A stretch of 63,186 nucleotides of DNA, filler included, from Rhabdomonas costata (taxonomy: Eukaryota), in assembly GCA_019059605.1 (NCBI GenBank). It is 50 parts of 50 records of this genome, joined end to end, with 100 filler letters (N's around TTAATTAATTAA, not from the genome) between each part and the next. Parts side by side here need not be neighbours in the genome. Positions count along the whole stretch, not along the records: positions 15,193 to 16,358 come from JAHMHO010025400.1; positions 16,459 to 17,623 come from JAHMHO010025401.1; positions 17,724 to 18,890 come from JAHMHO010025402.1; positions 18,991 to 20,156 come from JAHMHO010025403.1; 46 more parts are not named here. One strand, given 5' to 3'. Below the pieces are notes generated by a model. The model searched no databases, was not told where the DNA came from, and worked only from the letters and a program-made list of their open reading frames with translations. This document shows positions 16,351 to 38,617 of this stretch, piece after piece (position 1 is the first letter of the stretch; the number at the start of each line of letters is the position of its first letter). The position numbers were made by a program, and so were the translations under genes.

Positions 16351-18166
16351 ACACCACCNNNNNNNNNNNNNNNNNNNNNNNNNNNNNNNNNNNNNNNNNN
16401 NNTTAATTAATTAANNNNNNNNNNNNNNNNNNNNNNNNNNNNNNNNNNNNNNNNNNNNAACCAAAGCAGGAAGGATGAAAGAGCTCCACGTGAGGGCGAA
16501 AATCAACCCGAGGGCTGCAGGGGAAAACCGAAAGCAGAAGGCAGAAAGGCGAGAGCCGGGAGGGGTTGAAAGAGGCATGTGGAGAGGTGGGGTGAGGAAG
16601 GGCGCAGCTCCACGGGAAACAGTCCAACAATCCTTCAACGATCACAACTTTGGTTTTGCACACTTTTCAAGGGAATTGAATCGTTCCCGGTTGACATCAA
16701 AAAACACAATGGTGAACGACACGCTGGTGCAGATGCGCTCGTGGAGGACTGTGAATGTCACTGAAAATGCAGTTCCGACGGCGCACATGGCCTGCCAACA
16801 GCAGATCAACTTCACCTCGGCAGCAGCTAAGGGGAGGAAAGGGGTGGGCGAGGTGTGCGATTGGGAGGGTAAGGTTTGGCGCATTATTTCCGGGCGCCCC
16901 GTATATTGTGAAAACCTAGAGGGTTCAGACTATTTCCGGAAATCACGAAAAACAATTGGAGGATCAGCATCAAAAAAATGGGGGGGGGGGCAAAAACATA
17001 AAAAAACGAAAAGAAAAACCCCATTTGGTGTGCACAATTCCGCTCGACTTCGCTGCAAAGCTCGGTTCTCTGCTCAACACACACTGCAGGCAAGCGGGGG
17101 CACCGTTTGCGAAAGCAGCCCAGTCACAGAGCTAAAGACGGGACAGGATCAAGCGTAACAACGCATCGTTGCAGCGGTGAGGAATGTGGAATGTGGAATG
17201 TGACGGGCAGACAAGAGCTGCCTGTGAACACAACACAAAAAAATAGATGCACGACGGGGGAACTCCGGGGCAGCCTATACAAAGTGGACAGACTGAGAGC
17301 GTTTGCCCACCAGCACAATTCAAGAACACATGCGCATCTGAATGCTCTCAGGCAGCTCAAGCATGGATTCGGCCCATTTGCGCAATGTAAGCGTGGATGG
17401 GCCGGCGATGTCTTTGTTCGATCTTAACGACACACGATCCAGCTCCAGCTTCTGTCCCGATGTAAACAGCGGCACCGTGTCAACATAAATGAGGAGGAAG
17501 GGAATTGATAAAACTTGTACCGCATTGTGCACGCGCATGCACAACACGGGCAGAAAAAGGAGGGCTGCCTGAGGCGAGACCGAGGTTTGAAGGTAGAGGA
17601 AGAGTTACAGGAACAAACCAAAANNNNNNNNNNNNNNNNNNNNNNNNNNNNNNNNNNNNNNNNNNNNTTAATTAATTAANNNNNNNNNNNNNNNNNNNNN
17701 NNNNNNNNNNNNNNNNNNNNNNNGGTTGTGTGTGTGTGTGTGTGTGTGTGTGTTGGGCTCATTGCGCGCTGTCTGTGTGTGCGAGCGTGCGTGCGGGTAT
17801 GTGTTGGGAGCATTGCGCGCTGGCTTTTGCCTTGTTCACTGGTTAGTAGTCTAGTAAGTTGTGAGCACCGTCCCCTTTTTACTCGGCCTTCAGCCTCGTA
17901 AAAGGGGACGTTCCCCACAACTTACCAAGCAATTTAACCCGCCACGGCGCTCCGCTGGGATGGGTAATTTTAGGGTGATAATAAGAAACATAGATTAAAC
18001 GGTCTGCAACCTCGAAAAAAACGGCACGCTGAACCCGAAAATACGTCAATTTAACCCGCCACCGCGCCCCGCTGGGAGGGTATATTTTGGATACGCTGGT
18101 TGACGGTATTTTATACTACTGTAGAAAAACATATAAAGACAAAACTATTACTGTATAATATAAAAC

Positions 18167-18662
18167 ATGGATTCCAGAATCTGTTCAAGTTGCCACACCG
18201 AGAAAGGCGCAGCACGTCATATACTAAGAATTCAAGTGTCTGCAATCAGTGCAGGATGGAGTTAGCACGAGCTAAGAGAGACGGAATGGCCAATCTCACT
18301 TTTCAAACACGTTCACCTGAACTTGAAGCTCTAACAAAGAGATCTAACGAACTGTCAGCTGAGTTAAGAAGACAAGTTGCATTAAAACTTGATGCAAGCA
18401 AAGAACTAGAAGAGTACAAAGAAGCAGAACGCCAAAGATATCGTCAGTACTACAAATAGAACAGGAAAAGTGAAATTAAACGAGTAGCTGAATATCATAA
18501 ATATAAAAGAAGGGGTTAACCAAGCCTGTTGAAATGATTGATTGCACGTGTCACCAAACTTTCCCTATGATTTCGCTTGATTCACATTTACATAGCAAAT
18601 CGCACAGCACGCGTGATCAATCTAATTTATCTATTGAAGACATTTACATAATGTTAAAGTAA
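18167..18662 (+). pseudogene. Virus-type zinc-ribbon/coiled-coil protein, frameshifted
   Basis: MDSRICSSCHTEK /fs/ SYTKNSSVCNQCR...coiled coil...YYK* NRKSEIKR... /fs/ EMIDCTCHQTFPMISLDSHLHSKSH: a CxxC pair plus CxC..H..S..H motif of the kind common in NCLDV/PLV genes; stops and frameshifts. Confidence 0.6.
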
Positions 18663-18664
18663 TC

Positions 18665-18692
18665 TTAAATTGGAGAAATTTCCCCAATTTAA
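18665..18692 (+). terminator. AT-rich hairpin immediately 3' of the stop codon
   Basis: ttaaattgg-agaaatttcc-ccaatttaa. Confidence 0.45.
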
Positions 18693-18699
18693 ACACAGT

Positions 18700-18880
18700 A
18701 TTTTTCATAAAAATTTTCATAAAAATTTTCCATAAAAAATTTCATCCAAAAAATTTCATTCAAAAAATTTTTCATAAAAAATTTTGAAAATATTTGATTC
18801 AAAAAATTTCAATCAAAAAATTTTATACAAAAAATTCACAAAAAATGTTTTTATAAAAAAAATTTTGAAACAAAATTTCA
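18700..18880 (+). repeat. Degenerate A/T-tract tandem repeat (~12-14 nt, AAAAATTTTCAT-like)
   Basis: More than 10 imperfect copies visible. Confidence 0.85.
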
Positions 18881-18991
18881 CAACACAACCNNNNNNNNNN
18901 NNNNNNNNNNNNNNNNNNNNNNNNNNNNNNNNNNTTAATTAATTAANNNNNNNNNNNNNNNNNNNNNNNNNNNNNNNNNNNNNNNNNNNNA

Positions 18992-19867
18992 CATCTTTAT
19001 AGAACATGTCGAGATCCGATTACAAGTTTTGGTATTATTGCTGTTAAATTTGCATGTGATTGCTTATATCAAAACTTAATAAATAACAGTAAAGAGAATA
19101 CAAATTTTTTATTTACAAAAATAGAATGTAAAACGGATTTAGATTTTCAAAAATTCTCATTGTACAAAGATTGTATTAGATTTTTAATGATACAACGTAA
19201 ATTTTCATTAGGGTTTGTTGAATTTATTCGTGGAAAATACAAAATTGAAAATTACAACGGGATTACATTTTTATTTAAACAAATGTCTCCTTCAGAAATA
19301 GAATTAATTAGAGCCAAATCATTTGAAGAATTATGGTTTATGTTTTGGGGAAATAATAAAGAAGTGATTAATAATATAAATCATATAAATGAGTATAAAA
19401 TGGCACATGAAAAGTATACACAACCATTAACATATACACATAGAAATTTAGAATATTATATTGATCATATAAAGCCACAATATAAAGATATAGAATGGGG
19501 ATTTCCAAAAGGAAGAAGGAAACGATACGAAAAAAACATGACATGTGCATGTAGAGAATTTGAAGAAGAAACAGGATTAACAAAAAATGAATATAGATTA
19601 CTAGATAATATTGAACCAATTGAAGAAATATTTTATGGAACAAATGGTGTTAAATATAAACATATATATTACATAGCAGTAATAACAACGAGTCGAGATA
19701 TTAAAGAATCAGAATTTAATAGATTTCAACAAGAAGAGATCGGTAATATTGATTATATGACATATGATGAAGCAATGAGTATAATACGACCATATCATAT
19801 AGAAAGAAAACTTGTATTAACACATATTTATACAAATGTAATGAATATTCTAATATCAACAACTTAA
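18992..19867 (+). CDS. Mimiviridae-type Nudix hydrolase (putative mRNA decapping enzyme, L375-like), 5'-truncated
   Basis: Frame open from contig start: HLYRTCRDPITSFGII (end of Zn knuckle), LMIQRKFSLGFVEFIRGKY, Nudix box EWGFPKGRR..E....CACREFEEETGL, EEIFYGTNGVKYKHIYY, QQEEIG..IRPYH; very AT-rich, intronless. Confidence 0.93.
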   Translation, partial: HLYRTCRDPITSFGIIAVKFACDCLYQNLINNSKENTNFLFTKIECKTDLDFQKFSLYKDCIRFLMIQRKFSLGFVEFIRGKYKIENYNGITFLFKQMSPSEIELIRAKSFEELWFMFWGNNKEVINNINHINEYKMAHEKYTQPLTYTHRNLEYYIDHIKPQYKDIEWGFPKGRRKRYEKNMTCACREFEEETGLTKNEYRLLDNIEPIEEIFYGTNGVKYKHIYYIAVITTSRDIKESEFNRFQQEEIGNIDYMTYDEAMSIIRPYHIERKLVLTHIYTNVMNILISTT

Positions 19868-19881
19868 AATTTAAAAAATCG

Positions 19882-19914
19882 TTATTTATATTCTTTTATA
19901 AAAAATATAAATAA
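19882..19914 (+). terminator. Palindromic hairpin 14 nt after the Nudix stop (Mimivirus-type polyadenylation hairpin candidate)
   Basis: ttatttatatt(c)ttt-tata-aaaaatataaataa: 14-bp stem with one bulge. Confidence 0.6.
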
Positions 19915-20041
19915 AAAATTATTATAGTTACATAGTGACTAACATAATTAGTTACATAGTGACAACATATTCAATGACATTAAATCGCAGCATATCATGC
20001 GCACATAATGGTTTTTATTTCATTACATTTTTAATAAAAAT

Positions 20042-20153
20042 ATGTTTACATATTTTTTATGAAATCAATAAAATATTTTTGTAAAAAAAATTATTGATGT
20101 ACATGTTTACATATTTTTTTTTATAAAACAATAAAATATTTTTGTAAAAAAAA
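20042..20153 (+). repeat. ~50-bp AT-rich direct repeat x2 (plus tagttacatagtgac x2 at ~19925-19962)
   Basis: atgtttacatatttttt..aataaaatatttttgtaaaaaaaa occurs at 20042 and 20103. Confidence 0.8.
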
Positions 20154-21126
20154 ACANNNNNNNNNNNNNNNNNNNNNNNNNNNNNNNNNNNNNNNNNNNN
20201 TTAATTAATTAANNNNNNNNNNNNNNNNNNNNNNNNNNNNNNNNNNNNNNNNNNNNGGGTGGTGGGCTCAGTTGGTTCTCAGGCTTTTCAATCGGCAAGG
20301 CGGGGAAGTAAAACTCGACTCTTGATAAAGTTGTGTGTGTCTTGAAAGGAGAAGTTGCTTGGGTCTCCCTTTTGGGCCCAGAGCTTTTGTGCGTATTGCC
20401 TTGTGCACGACCTTTGTTGCAGCTTTCGCGAAGAATATACGAGAACGACGCCTTTCCCTGCAGCTGCCGTTCGCATCATATGCTTCTAACGTTTCTCGCC
20501 TCTTTTTTGCTTGAGGGGAATGGGGGGTACTCACCGTAGCGACCGCCGGTTCCCAAGAAGAAGCCTCGGCACTCCAGAAGCCGTTCCAAGGCTGTTCGGG
20601 TTGCCCTGGCCTCGCTGCCGTGCCTCCATACGGTGTACAAGAGCGACTTCATTACCCCCGAAACCAAGTATGAAACTGCACGGACTTTTTGAAGTGTTAC
20701 AGTAAATCAGTGGAACCTTTTGTCATGCTTTTGACATCCACTTTGTTGTCAACACGCGGTCGGCCATTGCACACCACGAAAGGTTGATTGATATGACGAA
20801 TGGTAAATCAGCGGTTTTCTCTTTCCTAGCGTCCCCACCGTTTGCGCGAATTGGTTCTGATCCCCCAGCATCTCCGAGCATCTCCGAGGCTGTACATATT
20901 CAGCAGATGCACCATGGCTGCACAGCGCTCGTACGTGAGATAAGATTGATTAGTGTGTATCCATTTTTTGGTGAAGTTTTTTTAATGATGCCAGAATGCT
21001 CAGCCGTGACGCTTTGCTCTCCTTCCGCGCTTTTTGGCTCTGGTCCTGGGAGCAACTCCAGCAACTCGAAGATCGTTGTCGTTGCACTATTATGGGTAAA
21101 ACCACTGAAAAATAGCAAATTTATTT

Positions 21127-33107: not shown

Positions 33108-34349
33108 GTGCCCCGTCTCTCTCCTCAGATGTACTGCCATGGAGCTCTCTCATTGTCTCAAAGTGTGGCACCCCACACAGAGCATGGAATTGGCTTGAAA
33201 AATGGCGGGTTTCATCTTAAAAGCGGAGCAAACCAAGTAACAAGGGAAACGTGTTTCTCAACACAAATCCAGGCACAAGTCCGTCGAGTTTACACAGTGA
33301 AACAGGTTACCAGGTTCTCTCTCCTGTTTCTTCGAAGCTACGTCAGTCCAAAACGCCAGCTTCATGGAAACGTCTCCGCAACTCTCTGTTTCGCAATGAA
33401 CAATGTGCCGAAGTCCAGATGTCGGCCTTCGGGTGGCCCTTCAGAGGGTGAGTAGGCGGAATTTTCTTGGTCTCGCTGCCGCGCCTCTTTGCTGGCCAAA
33501 ACAAAATGACTTTGTTCGGTCCTCCACATGGTTTACGTGTGCTGTATGATGCATTTTTTTCTCATTCTAACTGCGCCTGCGCACTGAGAAAAACCCTAAG
33601 CCGGAAAAGCAAAAAAGCAACTGAAACGAGAAAAATATAAGCAGTGTATAAAAATTATGAATCTCTTGTTGGAAACGCCGAATAAATAGAGTGTGGGAAA
33701 TATTTTCGGCTGCCAGAATCTCAAAAAGTGCTGCGGTAGGAGGCACTTCCCCCTTCCCGCTAAGGGCAATGCCCGCCTCTCAGGATGGGAGATCGGTGCT
33801 GCACTGCGGGTGGATGGGACATGATTTTTACAATGGGAGAGATGCACGGAAAGCCCCCAAACCATCACTCCCCACCGGCACTCTATGCTCACAAAAAGAA
33901 TGTGAGAAAGTGTGCGTGTGTGCGTGTGTGAAATTCGCAAATCCGACGCCGCTTGAACGGGGATGTAAATTTGAAGGAAATGTGAGCGGAGAGAACAAGG
34001 CCTCCACTGCGTAGCTTTCGTCACTTTTGTGTGAAGCTGGTCATCGGCGTCACGCTTTTTGCCTCTTTTTGTCACCACACCCNNNNNNNNNNNNNNNNNN
34101 NNNNNNNNNNNNNNNNNNNNNNNNNNTTAATTAATTAANNNNNNNNNNNNNNNNNNNNNNNNNNNNNNNNNNNNNNNNNNNNGGTTTTGGGTTACTAACG
34201 CAGACAGGTTCTCAGGTTTTGCAGAGTTCTGTGATACAAGCAGATGACCAGTGGATCCGCAGGCCAACCATTCGCCGTGAACAAAAAGCACAGAACTCTG
34301 CAAAACCTGAGAACCTGTCTGCGTTAGTAACACAAATACAAAACAACAC

Positions 34350-34901
34350 CTGTCTCCCAATGTCCAGCATGTCACGAAACACAGAGATGTTCAGCCCAAA
34401 ATCTGATACGTATTTCAACGTTATCCGGGACGCAGTAACCACAGTGCCCAGGTGAGCCTCCAGCTGCTCCTCCATTAGGTCAAGATCTCGGCTCATTAGC
34501 GCAGAGGCCATCTCACTGATTTGATGCGCAGTGAACTCCGACAGCTCCTTCCCCTCACGTAGAGAGCTGTTGGTCAAGTTATCCAACATCGCTAGCGTGG
34601 CCGCGGAGAGCTCAGCAAAAATTGATTCAGAGCCGGACTGAACCTGAAAGATTGTCAGAGAATTTGTGGCCTGAAGCTCGCGGACAACCCCATAAGTGGA
34701 AGTAATCAGCACCGCAGCCACTGACGCCGCCGTGACCACCACAACCATGGCAAAGCACAGGACGATGCACAACCGTATGGAAAGGAGCCTTGGGGGCCTT
34801 GGTTGGAGCGGGCGATTCGCGACGGTGGAGTGAGGTGAATGGGGACTGTGAAGGCACGGGTGATCCAAGACAGGATGCATATCCCCAGAAAGTGTAGGCA
34901 T
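34350..34901 (-). CDS. N-terminal exon of a membrane sensor/receptor (TM helix plus helical extracellular region)
   Basis: LSIRLCIVLCFAMVVVVTAASVAAVLITSTY followed by a long helical segment; ends at cag|gtgttg. Confidence 0.6.
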
Positions 34902-36614: not shown

Positions 36615-37208
36615 NNNNNNNNNNNNNNNNNNNNNNNNNNNNNNNNNNNNNNNNNNNNTTAATTAATTAANNNNNNNNNNNNNNNNNNNNNNNNNNNNNN
36701 NNNNNNNNNNNNNNGGTTTTTGGTACCAACGTGAAGACAACGGAATGGCCAAAAATCGTTTTTCATATACCGCCTCATGACCGTATAACACCCGTTATAC
36801 CGTTTGACGCCCCCCCTCCCAATACACAGGACCGGAAGAAAACAGAAAGACTCATCCTTGACAGCTGAAAAAAAATCGAAAGTCGAGGGAAGAGGGCTGG
36901 TGGGGGCCAATATTTTTTCCCAGTGCAACCACCTAGCCTTCCAACCGTAGGTCCGAACCACTTCCATCGGATAGCCCACCCAAACCATCCTGAGGGAAGG
37001 TCAAGCCCCTCCCACCAAGCCTTCGACTACTTCGCGCAAAATAAAAACACACCCACACCCACACACAGACAAACTCACGGACATTTTCCGCTGGGCGCTG
37101 CATTCCAAACCCAGCAGTAACAATACTCTACATACCTCAATTCGCTTCGTTTCGGGAGTAAACAAGCAACACACCCACACCTAAACAACCACCAAAACAA
37201 AAGCACAC

Positions 37209-37560
37209 CAGGGGTGTAGTTGAACTCTGGATGCCCTGGTGTTCTGCTGCGGACGCTGCGGAACTGCTTGATCTGCGGCAGGTCGACGTCAAACCCACTG
37301 ATGTGCAGCCAGGCGTACAGGAACATAGACCCATGGCCCGCGCTGAGCACGAAGCGGTCACGGTTGAGCCACTTCGGGTCGGCCGGGTTGAACCGCAGGG
37401 TATCCCCGAACAGCACGGCACCGATCTCTGCGCAGCCCAGAGGCATGCCAAGGTGCCCGCTCTTGGCCTGCGCCACTGCATCCATCGCGAGCCCCCGGGC
37501 CTCGTTGGCAGCCTGGCTGAGGATATCGGCGCGGAACACCGACCCGGGGGGCTTCACCAT
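37209..37560 (-). CDS. TKT: Transketolase, N-terminal exon
   Basis: [28 protein letters not shown]...[17 protein letters not shown]...TPGHPE; donor g|gtgtgc. Confidence 0.97.
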
Positions 37561-38617
37561 CCCCGAGCCACTCGTTGGGGAGGTCTGTGGGGAAGGCAAC
37601 GCTCAGCTGTCCATGTGCGTGGGTGCAAAAAGAAACGTCATGCCCCGCGTCGTGCCACAGAAATCACACATCAGGACCAATCAGGCAACTAGTGCTGGAA
37701 AGGTTTGAATTATACACGATACGAGGAGGAAACGGCTCTGGAAATAGAGATTTGAGTATCGCTTGTTTTTATTACAACTGTGAAGTTACCCTCATATTAG
37801 AGGAGGATACTAATTGAAACTACCATATTTCAGAGTGGATGTGTCAAACAAAGCTAAGGTGGTGCGATGTCTAATTTGCTNNNNNNNNNNNNNNNNNNNN
37901 NNNNNNNNNNNNNNNNNNNNNNNNTTAATTAATTAANNNNNNNNNNNNNNNNNNNNNNNNNNNNNNNNNNNNNNNNNNNNGGGTGTTGTTGTCTGCAGAG
38001 AGAAAACCCAGGGAGCCCGGAAAGAGCACTATTTGATATGCAAAAGGCTGACGGCAGATTACGGGGTTCAGGAGACACCCACTCCTTGGCTCCTGACCCT
38101 TCCCTCCAGCTCTGTACTGCTCCGCGCCATGAATAATTCTGGTGTTCGTTCACTTTTACCAAAGTTGTAAAAGCGAATGAAAGATTACTAAAATCCGGTG
38201 GCATTGAACTGGGAGGGGGCAGGGTTCGAAAACGGATGCTTTTCCATGTCCCCATCAGAGGGTTGTTTCGTGGGTTCGAGCGGAGTATGTTAAAAAAAGG
38301 AATCCCTGAGCGGCTAACAGGGTTTTTTTATCCAACAACATATCTTGGCACCCTCGAAGCGGAAAAGAACGGGTGTCTCCTTCGGGATGGCGATGACAAT
38401 CTGGTAAGGGTTAAGGCGATGGATAGGAAAAGGTGAGCCGCCATTACACCCCCTGCCCGCTGGGATGAATGCCAAATGTCAACATTTACTGATAAACAAA
38501 TGGGTTCCAACCTCCGCAAGCGAGCAAAGGGCCACCTAGACAGTGGATGCAGAAAATACAGAACAAAAAAGTAACAGAACTTGAAAGCTGCGGGAGGTGA
38601 AAGTCGAACGTGCACAC

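Follow-up and report, generated by a model that had tools for sequence, protein, structure and literature searches.

The DNA analysed here (the window; 63,186 nucleotides, filler included) comes from assembly GCA_019059605.1 of the eukaryote Rhabdomonas costata and consists of 50 separate contigs of 1,164-1,167 bp each, which stand in apparent length order and have 49 copies of one 100-bp linker (N44-TTAATTAATTAA-N44) between them. The interval 17724-18890 is exactly one of these contigs, 1,167 bp long, that we named c15. A first-pass annotation had described it as the junction between host DNA and the left terminus of a decaying Polinton-like virus (PLV) with the predicted target-site duplication (TSD) CTGGTT. 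Since the interval is one whole contig, the neighbours of c15 in the window are not its genomic neighbours, and in windows stitched from short contigs the adjacency of pieces generally carries no genomic meaning. Within the assembly c15 was compared with the other 49 contigs, about 58 kb of visible sequence and thus a tiny sample of the assembly. From left to right, c15 contains a G+T-rich tract, an imperfect hairpin, a pair of direct repeats, a small broken gene, a palindrome and an A/T-rich tandem array (Table 1). Tentatively, and with somewhat less than even confidence, we read c15 as covering one edge of an integrated, AT-rich element, mobile or virus-like, the family of which is unassignable from this piece.

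Table 1. Features of contig c15, with positions counted along the window (., no strand assigned)
Feature	Position	Strand	Details
G+T-rich host-type tract	17724-17844	.	GC 0.57, G+T 0.79; left end of c15 lies inside a repeat
CTGGTT, predicted TSD, first copy	17839-17844	+	exact match
AGTAGT	17845-17850	+	sole copy in c15; commonest published Maverick 5' end motif; frequent by chance
Imperfect hairpin	17854-17925	.	arms 17854-17879 and 17900-17925, 26 nt, 88% complementary; 20-nt loop
Direct repeat, copy 1	17930-17971	+	42 nt; opens with CAATTTAA
Direct repeat, copy 2	18047-18088	+	86% identity to copy 1; start-to-start distance 117 bp
CTGGTT, second copy	18096-18101	+	16 bp from the GC change point 18080; brackets a 251-bp block with the first copy
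Main stop-free frame	18100-18459	+	119 aa from TTG; 134 codons stop to stop from 18055
ATG-started frame with first CxxC	18167-18262	+	reads MDSRICSSCHTEK...; begins MDSRICSSC; stop after 32 codons
Palindrome TTAAATTGG...CCAATTTAA	18665-18692	.	14-nt arms; bears the octamer that opens both direct repeats
A/T-rich tandem array	18702 to about 18860-18875	.	period 13-14, about 11-12 copies, 72% matches, GC 0.11-0.18

Among the 50 contigs, c15 is the sole compositional hybrid. Its GC content, taken over 200 bp, lies between 0.145 and 0.55, a span of 0.405, whereas the span of every other contig is at most 0.33, and no 200-bp window of the contigs with about 50% GC falls under 0.36. By segment, the GC content of c15 is 0.57 at 17724-17844, 0.50 at 17845-18089, 0.38 at 18090-18620 and 0.17 at 18621-18890, and the left ~120 bp are host-like and the right ~800 bp are not. 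The AT-richness of 18090-18620 is reached by only two of 1,472 host windows of 531 bp, both of which are located in c6, a host-type contig of featureless DNA with 37-45% GC. For the coding side of the host baseline, all stop-free stretches of at least 103 aa in the 50 contigs were compared with Pfam at E <= 1e-4, and 5 of these 142 stretches gave a match. Four are gene fragments of the host pool, namely WD40 (c13), HATPase_c (c25), transketolase (c30) and RING (c32), and the fifth is a NUDIX protein on c16. The GC content at the third codon position (GC3) is 0.75-0.84 in the four host-pool fragments, compared to 0.13 in the NUDIX open reading frame (ORF) of c16 and 0.28 in an integrase ORF of c1.

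The gene in the AT-rich part of c15 is spread over two overlapping frames. The first CxxC pair lies in the short ATG-started frame, and the main stop-free frame (...VCNQCRMELARAKR...YRQYYK and a stop) holds the second CxxC pair and ends in a charged stretch that is probably helical. The length of this frame is reached in 26 of 2,000 shuffles of 18090-18620. Its GC content, about 40% overall, drops from about 0.45-0.49 at codon position 1 over 0.37-0.41 at position 2 to 0.30-0.33 at position 3, which is expected of a coding sequence in an AT-biased genome, and its codon usage is not that of the host-pool fragments. The change of frame is due either to a frameshift mutation or to an assembly indel, which are indistinguishable here. 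A spliceosomal intron was considered by eye as well, and no stretch bounded by GT and AG has a fitting length that would bring the frame back. The main frame closes with a TAG at 18457, and c1 and c16 offer no grounds for assuming an altered genetic code. In an exhaustive search with the 119-aa ORF no relative was found at E <= 0.001 among 1,835,955,588 representative proteins. Moreover, neither Pfam nor PHROGs contains a family for the ORF, the best score in the protein atlas was 0.77 and thus under the lead threshold, and none of 91 pattern matches from a translated search against viral contigs was confirmed. What had been annotated as a zinc-ribbon pseudogene is therefore a broken gene with CxxC...CxxC spacing, as proposed, but with the two pairs in different frames and no family match in support of a zinc ribbon.

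These data also bear on an alternative according to which c15 is an ordinary host locus without any foreign DNA and merely combines a microsatellite, promoter-like repeats, a small ORF that arose by chance or is lineage-specific, and an A/T minisatellite. The low GC content of the featureless c6 is in line with this, and much of the AT excess of c15 comes from the 270-bp segment 18621-18890 with the tandem array. Furthermore, the ORF region is about neutral in a Markov model contrasting host and AT-rich contigs, and an ORF without relatives or family would be expected in such a locus. However, few shuffles reach the length of the ORF, its GC3 is only 0.30 where the host-pool fragments have 0.75-0.84, its AT-richness is found in almost no host window, and the GC range of the contig is unequalled. 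We therefore regard an ordinary host locus as quite unlikely.

To the right of the gene, the A/T-tract tandem repeats of the first-pass annotation were confirmed as an array starting at 18702, and the right end of c15 falls inside this array. The 3' hairpin that had been noted there exists as the palindrome at 18665-18692, but its folding is unexceptional (z = -1.16; 23 of 200 shuffles as good). The octamer CAATTTAA occurs five times in the 63-kb window, compared to 3.06 expected, and four of these five occurrences are in c15, in both direct repeats and in both arms of the palindrome. As these are only two independent structures, the octamer is a weak link between the block of about 50% GC and the AT-rich part. 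Rfam gave no match at the gathering score in the whole window and none at E <= 1 on c15, and no tRNA is present in c15. The only tRNA of the window is a tRNA-Thr(TGT) on c28 (34276-34367), the length of which, 92 nt, suggests an intron.

The left tract begins with (TG)13.5 at 17727-17753, which belongs to a 48-nt unit present twice, from 17727 and from 17778, with 79% identity between the copies, a degenerate repeat of ~51 bp. Runs of (TG)n or (CA)n with at least six units are found only at the left end of c15 and in c36, c37 and c42 among the 50 contigs. Fourteen of the other 49 contigs likewise contain a 120-bp window with a G+T content of at least 0.70, and such a tract is ordinary for this assembly. 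Where the host-like DNA ends is less clear. G+T falls from 0.78 to 0.44 with a change point at 17864, and this strand skew is the sole change near the proposed junction, as GC% shows no break at 17844/17845. In the Markov model, for which the contigs of about 50% GC on the one hand and the AT-rich contigs c1, c2 and c16 on the other hand were used as training sets, the best single change point is 18080 at orders 1 and 2 and 18341 at order 3.

Between the host-like left part and the AT-rich right part lies a block that is ambiguous, since the GC content of its 245 bp is host-like but its CpG observed/expected (o/e) ratio is high: for 17845-18089 the latter is 1.19, compared to a mean of 0.80 (standard deviation 0.20) in host windows, of which 3% reach 1.2. 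The structures described for this block are real. The hairpin, annotated with 25-bp arms, has arms of 26 nt and folds as DNA with -22 kcal/mol (z = -5.74; none of 200 shuffles as good), and the direct repeats at 17930 and 18047, annotated as 31 bp long, measure 42 nt each. One could assume that the 251 bp at 17845-18095 are a non-autonomous insertion of small size with CTGGTT as its 6-bp flanking duplication, rather than the start of a large element. CTGGTT is exact on both sides, each site has nearby one of the two change points that were computed independently (17864 for G+T skew, 18080 for GC), only 273 of 14,060 trials (1.9%) show a 6-mer recurring that near to a given downstream position, and the CpG o/e ratio of the block is unlike both flanks. 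However, the pairing was spotted post hoc, and 6-mers often recur somewhere within 300 bp (727 of 5,979 trials, 12%). Moreover, the match around the two copies is limited to 6 bp, a terminal inverted repeat (TIR) is absent from the block (10 of 60 positions agree), and no further copy was found in the window or the collections searched. Removal of the block would also leave a non-uniform sequence, with flanks of 0.57 and 0.39 GC. Taken together, such a small insertion appears very improbable.

Other contigs of the window show in which company c15 is found. Contig c16 (18991-20156; 22.5% GC) encodes the NUDIX protein mentioned above, for which 28 of 36 pattern matches on giant-virus metagenome contigs were confirmed as relatives, nearly full-length and with 33-42% identity. 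Giant-virus DNA, free or integrated, is therefore present in the same assembly. Contig c1 (1-1166; 33% GC) encodes the last 347 residues of a standalone retroviral-type integrase of ~350 aa. The ORF alone gives a weak rve match with E = 0.0039, which is below the Pfam cutoff, but a profile of 16 sequences of the c1 family matches the PFV integrase with E = 1.2e-10 over the core and the C-terminal domain. Among 1,428 candidates, 66 relatives were found at E <= 0.001, all but one with PF00665, and all of them metagenomic, on contigs of up to 14 kb, and unnamed or "hypothetical"; none was found in the viral and prokaryote-genome collections. The N-terminal His/Cys zinc finger is absent from the family consensus. 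Contig c2 (1267-2432) has 36.5% GC, a CpG o/e ratio of 1.06 and ORFs of at most 82 codons, and is without similarity to the other contigs.

The transketolase fragment on c30 (36715-37880) is an N-terminal exon, the nearest named relatives of which are bacterial (Verrucomicrobiota) with 70-78% identity. Its homology ends abruptly at residue ~111, and the 489 nt of contig left give no match in any frame. At the break, where TPG is followed by GTGCTT, the conserved motif should go on and a GT donor is available, so that the break reads as a putative intron. Either the eukaryote carries a bacterial-like gene here, or the contig pool is mixed. The contigs of about 50% GC are at least partly eukaryotic, and the firmest eukaryotic references among them are the WD40 and RING fragments.

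As another alternative, contig c15 could be chimeric, with amplification or assembly having joined host DNA to non-integrated AT-rich DNA of a co-occurring virus or a free element. The assembly is highly fragmented and visibly mixed, with a host-type pool, the giant-virus contig c16 and the AT-rich contigs c1 and c2, and one hybrid in 50 contigs is a rate compatible with chimerism. Like the chimeric contigs of fragmented or amplified assemblies, c15 is a single short contig with an abrupt change of character and no second copy, it carries repeats at both ends, and no independent copy of the junction was found in any collection searched. On the other hand, neither candidate junction has a low-complexity or shared repeat that could mislead a graph assembler, and the hairpin is imperfect (88%), while chimeras from displacement amplification should carry a perfect inverted duplication. 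Three compositional steps are seen rather than a single one, and the AT-rich part is unmatched by the other AT-rich contigs, as c15 shares no sequence with c1, c2 or c16. We regard a chimera as unlikely, although it is the likeliest of the alternatives.

The original and most specific proposal places the left terminus of an endogenous Polinton/Maverick-like virus exactly at 17845, with a TIR running from there and CTGGTT as the TSD left by an rve integrase on insertion. It is a subset of the reading of c15 as an element edge. Its premise of AGT-type ends and 6-bp TSDs is in print: for vertebrate Mavericks, ends that are mostly 5'-(AGT)2//(ACT)2-3' and also (AG)3//(CT)3, 6-bp TSDs as the rule and TIRs of 46-1,447 bp are described in PMC8097293, and for PLVs, TIRs of several hundred bp and 5-6-bp TSDs made by rve integrases in PMC12220804. 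AGTAGT is indeed present at 17845, the change point of the G+T skew lies within 20 bp of it, and the block that follows is CpG-rich compared to the host and shares CAATTTAA with the AT-rich part. Moreover, the low GC content of endogenous PLVs, for which 14-28% below the host is given in PMC12220804, has a counterpart in the 17-38% GC of 18090-18890 compared to about 50% in the host-type contigs. The standalone rve integrase, found on another contig, c1, has a codon composition similar to that of the c15 ORF, and its family consensus fits the description in PMC2836005 that Polinton/Maverick integrases are typically without the N-terminal His/Cys finger.

However, the published end motifs are from vertebrates and not from protists, and six-base end motifs turn up by chance in a third or more of 1.2-kb contigs: 17 of the 50 contigs contain (AGT)2 or (ACT)2, and 32 contain at least one of the four published motifs, which leaves AGTAGT with low weight. 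The GC change point is at 18080 rather than at 17845. Allowing up to three mismatches, a second site for the 19-mer that follows 17845 is found on neither strand of the window, an internal partner is absent (10 of 60 and 21 of 60 identities), and no inverted partner or copy with other flanks was found in the viral, metagenome and prokaryote-genome collections. CTGGTT recurs 251 bp downstream at 18096 and not at a distant right end, which would lie beyond the contig. This is ill-fitting for an element of 14-40 kb, suggests a different boundary model and argues against CTGGTT as the TSD of such an element. With regard to hallmark genes, no polymerase family was detected on c15 or among the 142 stretches, and capsid, packaging ATPase and maturation protease were likewise without a Pfam match there. 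The integrase family of c1 has no relatives in the viral collection, and its tie to c15 is unproven, with neither a physical nor a sequence link. According to the first-pass annotation, a single-copy sequence without inverted partner or viral neighbours would refute the terminus, and exactly this was found within the about 58 kb compared. The claim fails within this sample, without the specific claim being refuted thereby; what stands of it is host-like DNA joined to foreign-looking AT-rich DNA. We regard an exact Polinton terminus at 17845 as improbable.

We return to the broader reading of c15 as the edge of an integrated AT-rich element. The hybrid composition of c15, its host-type left end, the codon bias of the ORF, the CpG-rich block and the shared CAATTTAA together favour a boundary with a foreign element. 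With the giant-virus contig c16 and with c1 and its integrase, foreign AT-rich DNA is present in the assembly, which we count in favour of this reading as well. Accepting it, c15 would start with host-type eukaryotic DNA, about 120 bp of it or perhaps as much as about 360 bp, and continue into an AT-rich foreign segment. This segment would hold a single small gene, broken by a frameshift and with a charged tail and two CxxC pairs, and after it the palindrome and the 13-bp A/T array. The hairpin and the two 42-nt direct repeats, placed between the two compositions, might represent an end-proximal protein-binding or regulatory region of the element. That the join is biological and that the foreign DNA entered by integration is what we infer, and the same applies to the exact boundary, which would be located between 17845 and about 18100, at 17845-17864 according to the G+T skew and at about 18080-18100 according to GC.

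Several points weigh against this reading. The evidence is a single contig of 1,167 bp with repeats at both ends, for which a chimeric join is possible. The two compositional boundaries differ by about 230 bp. Given the composition of c6, the non-repeat AT-rich part is extreme for host DNA yet within its range. Furthermore, the host baseline is small and its pool may be mixed, as the nearest named relatives of the c30 transketolase are bacterial and the HATPase_c fragment could be bacterial too, and the apparent link between c1 and c15 is compositional only. Finally, the window and the public collections searched yielded neither a second copy nor an inverted partner nor a relative for any part of c15: exact-pattern scans of the viral, metagenome and prokaryote-genome collections gave no match for the 19-mer and the 25-mer of the terminus, the core of the direct repeats, the core of the ORF or the unit of the A/T array, and blastn of 17845-18700 against phage and plasmid records gave none.

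Compared to known systems, c15 resembles Polintons/Mavericks and PLVs in having (AGT)2 after a host-like tract and adjoining a 6-bp candidate TSD, a GC content lower than that of the host, direct repeats near the candidate end, and a standalone rve integrase elsewhere in the assembly. It differs from them in that a TIR partner, polymerase, capsid, ATPase and protease were not found here, its sole gene is an orphan, and its candidate terminal block has about 50% GC with an interior of 17-38%. With endogenous virophages and giant-virus insertions of protists c15 has in common that AT-rich foreign-looking DNA stands beside host DNA and that a giant-virus contig co-occurs. However, a giant-virus origin of the AT-rich half was rejected, as c15 matches the 28 giant-virus loci only via its low-complexity A/T array and its ORF has about 40% GC compared to 25% for the ORF of c16. 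A bolder version would make c15 the left end of an unsampled, integrase-mobilised AT-rich lineage, Polinton-like or virophage-like, with an (AGT)2 terminus, the hairpin/repeat block as binding site of an integrase or terminal protein, orphan accessory genes and the c1 family as its integrase, in an unsampled host eukaryote that also contains giant-virus DNA. This combination is speculative, and we give it little chance of being correct.

Integrations of virus-like elements are known by the thousand according to PMC12220804. As c15 is without a hallmark gene, it adds little alone, and even if the Polinton reading were true, it would be another member of a well-known kind. If the reading as an element edge is true, c15 would add a further case of a virus-like element integrated in a eukaryote that has been little sampled and also has giant-virus DNA, and it would thereby bear on the theme of virophages and PLVs as a defence.

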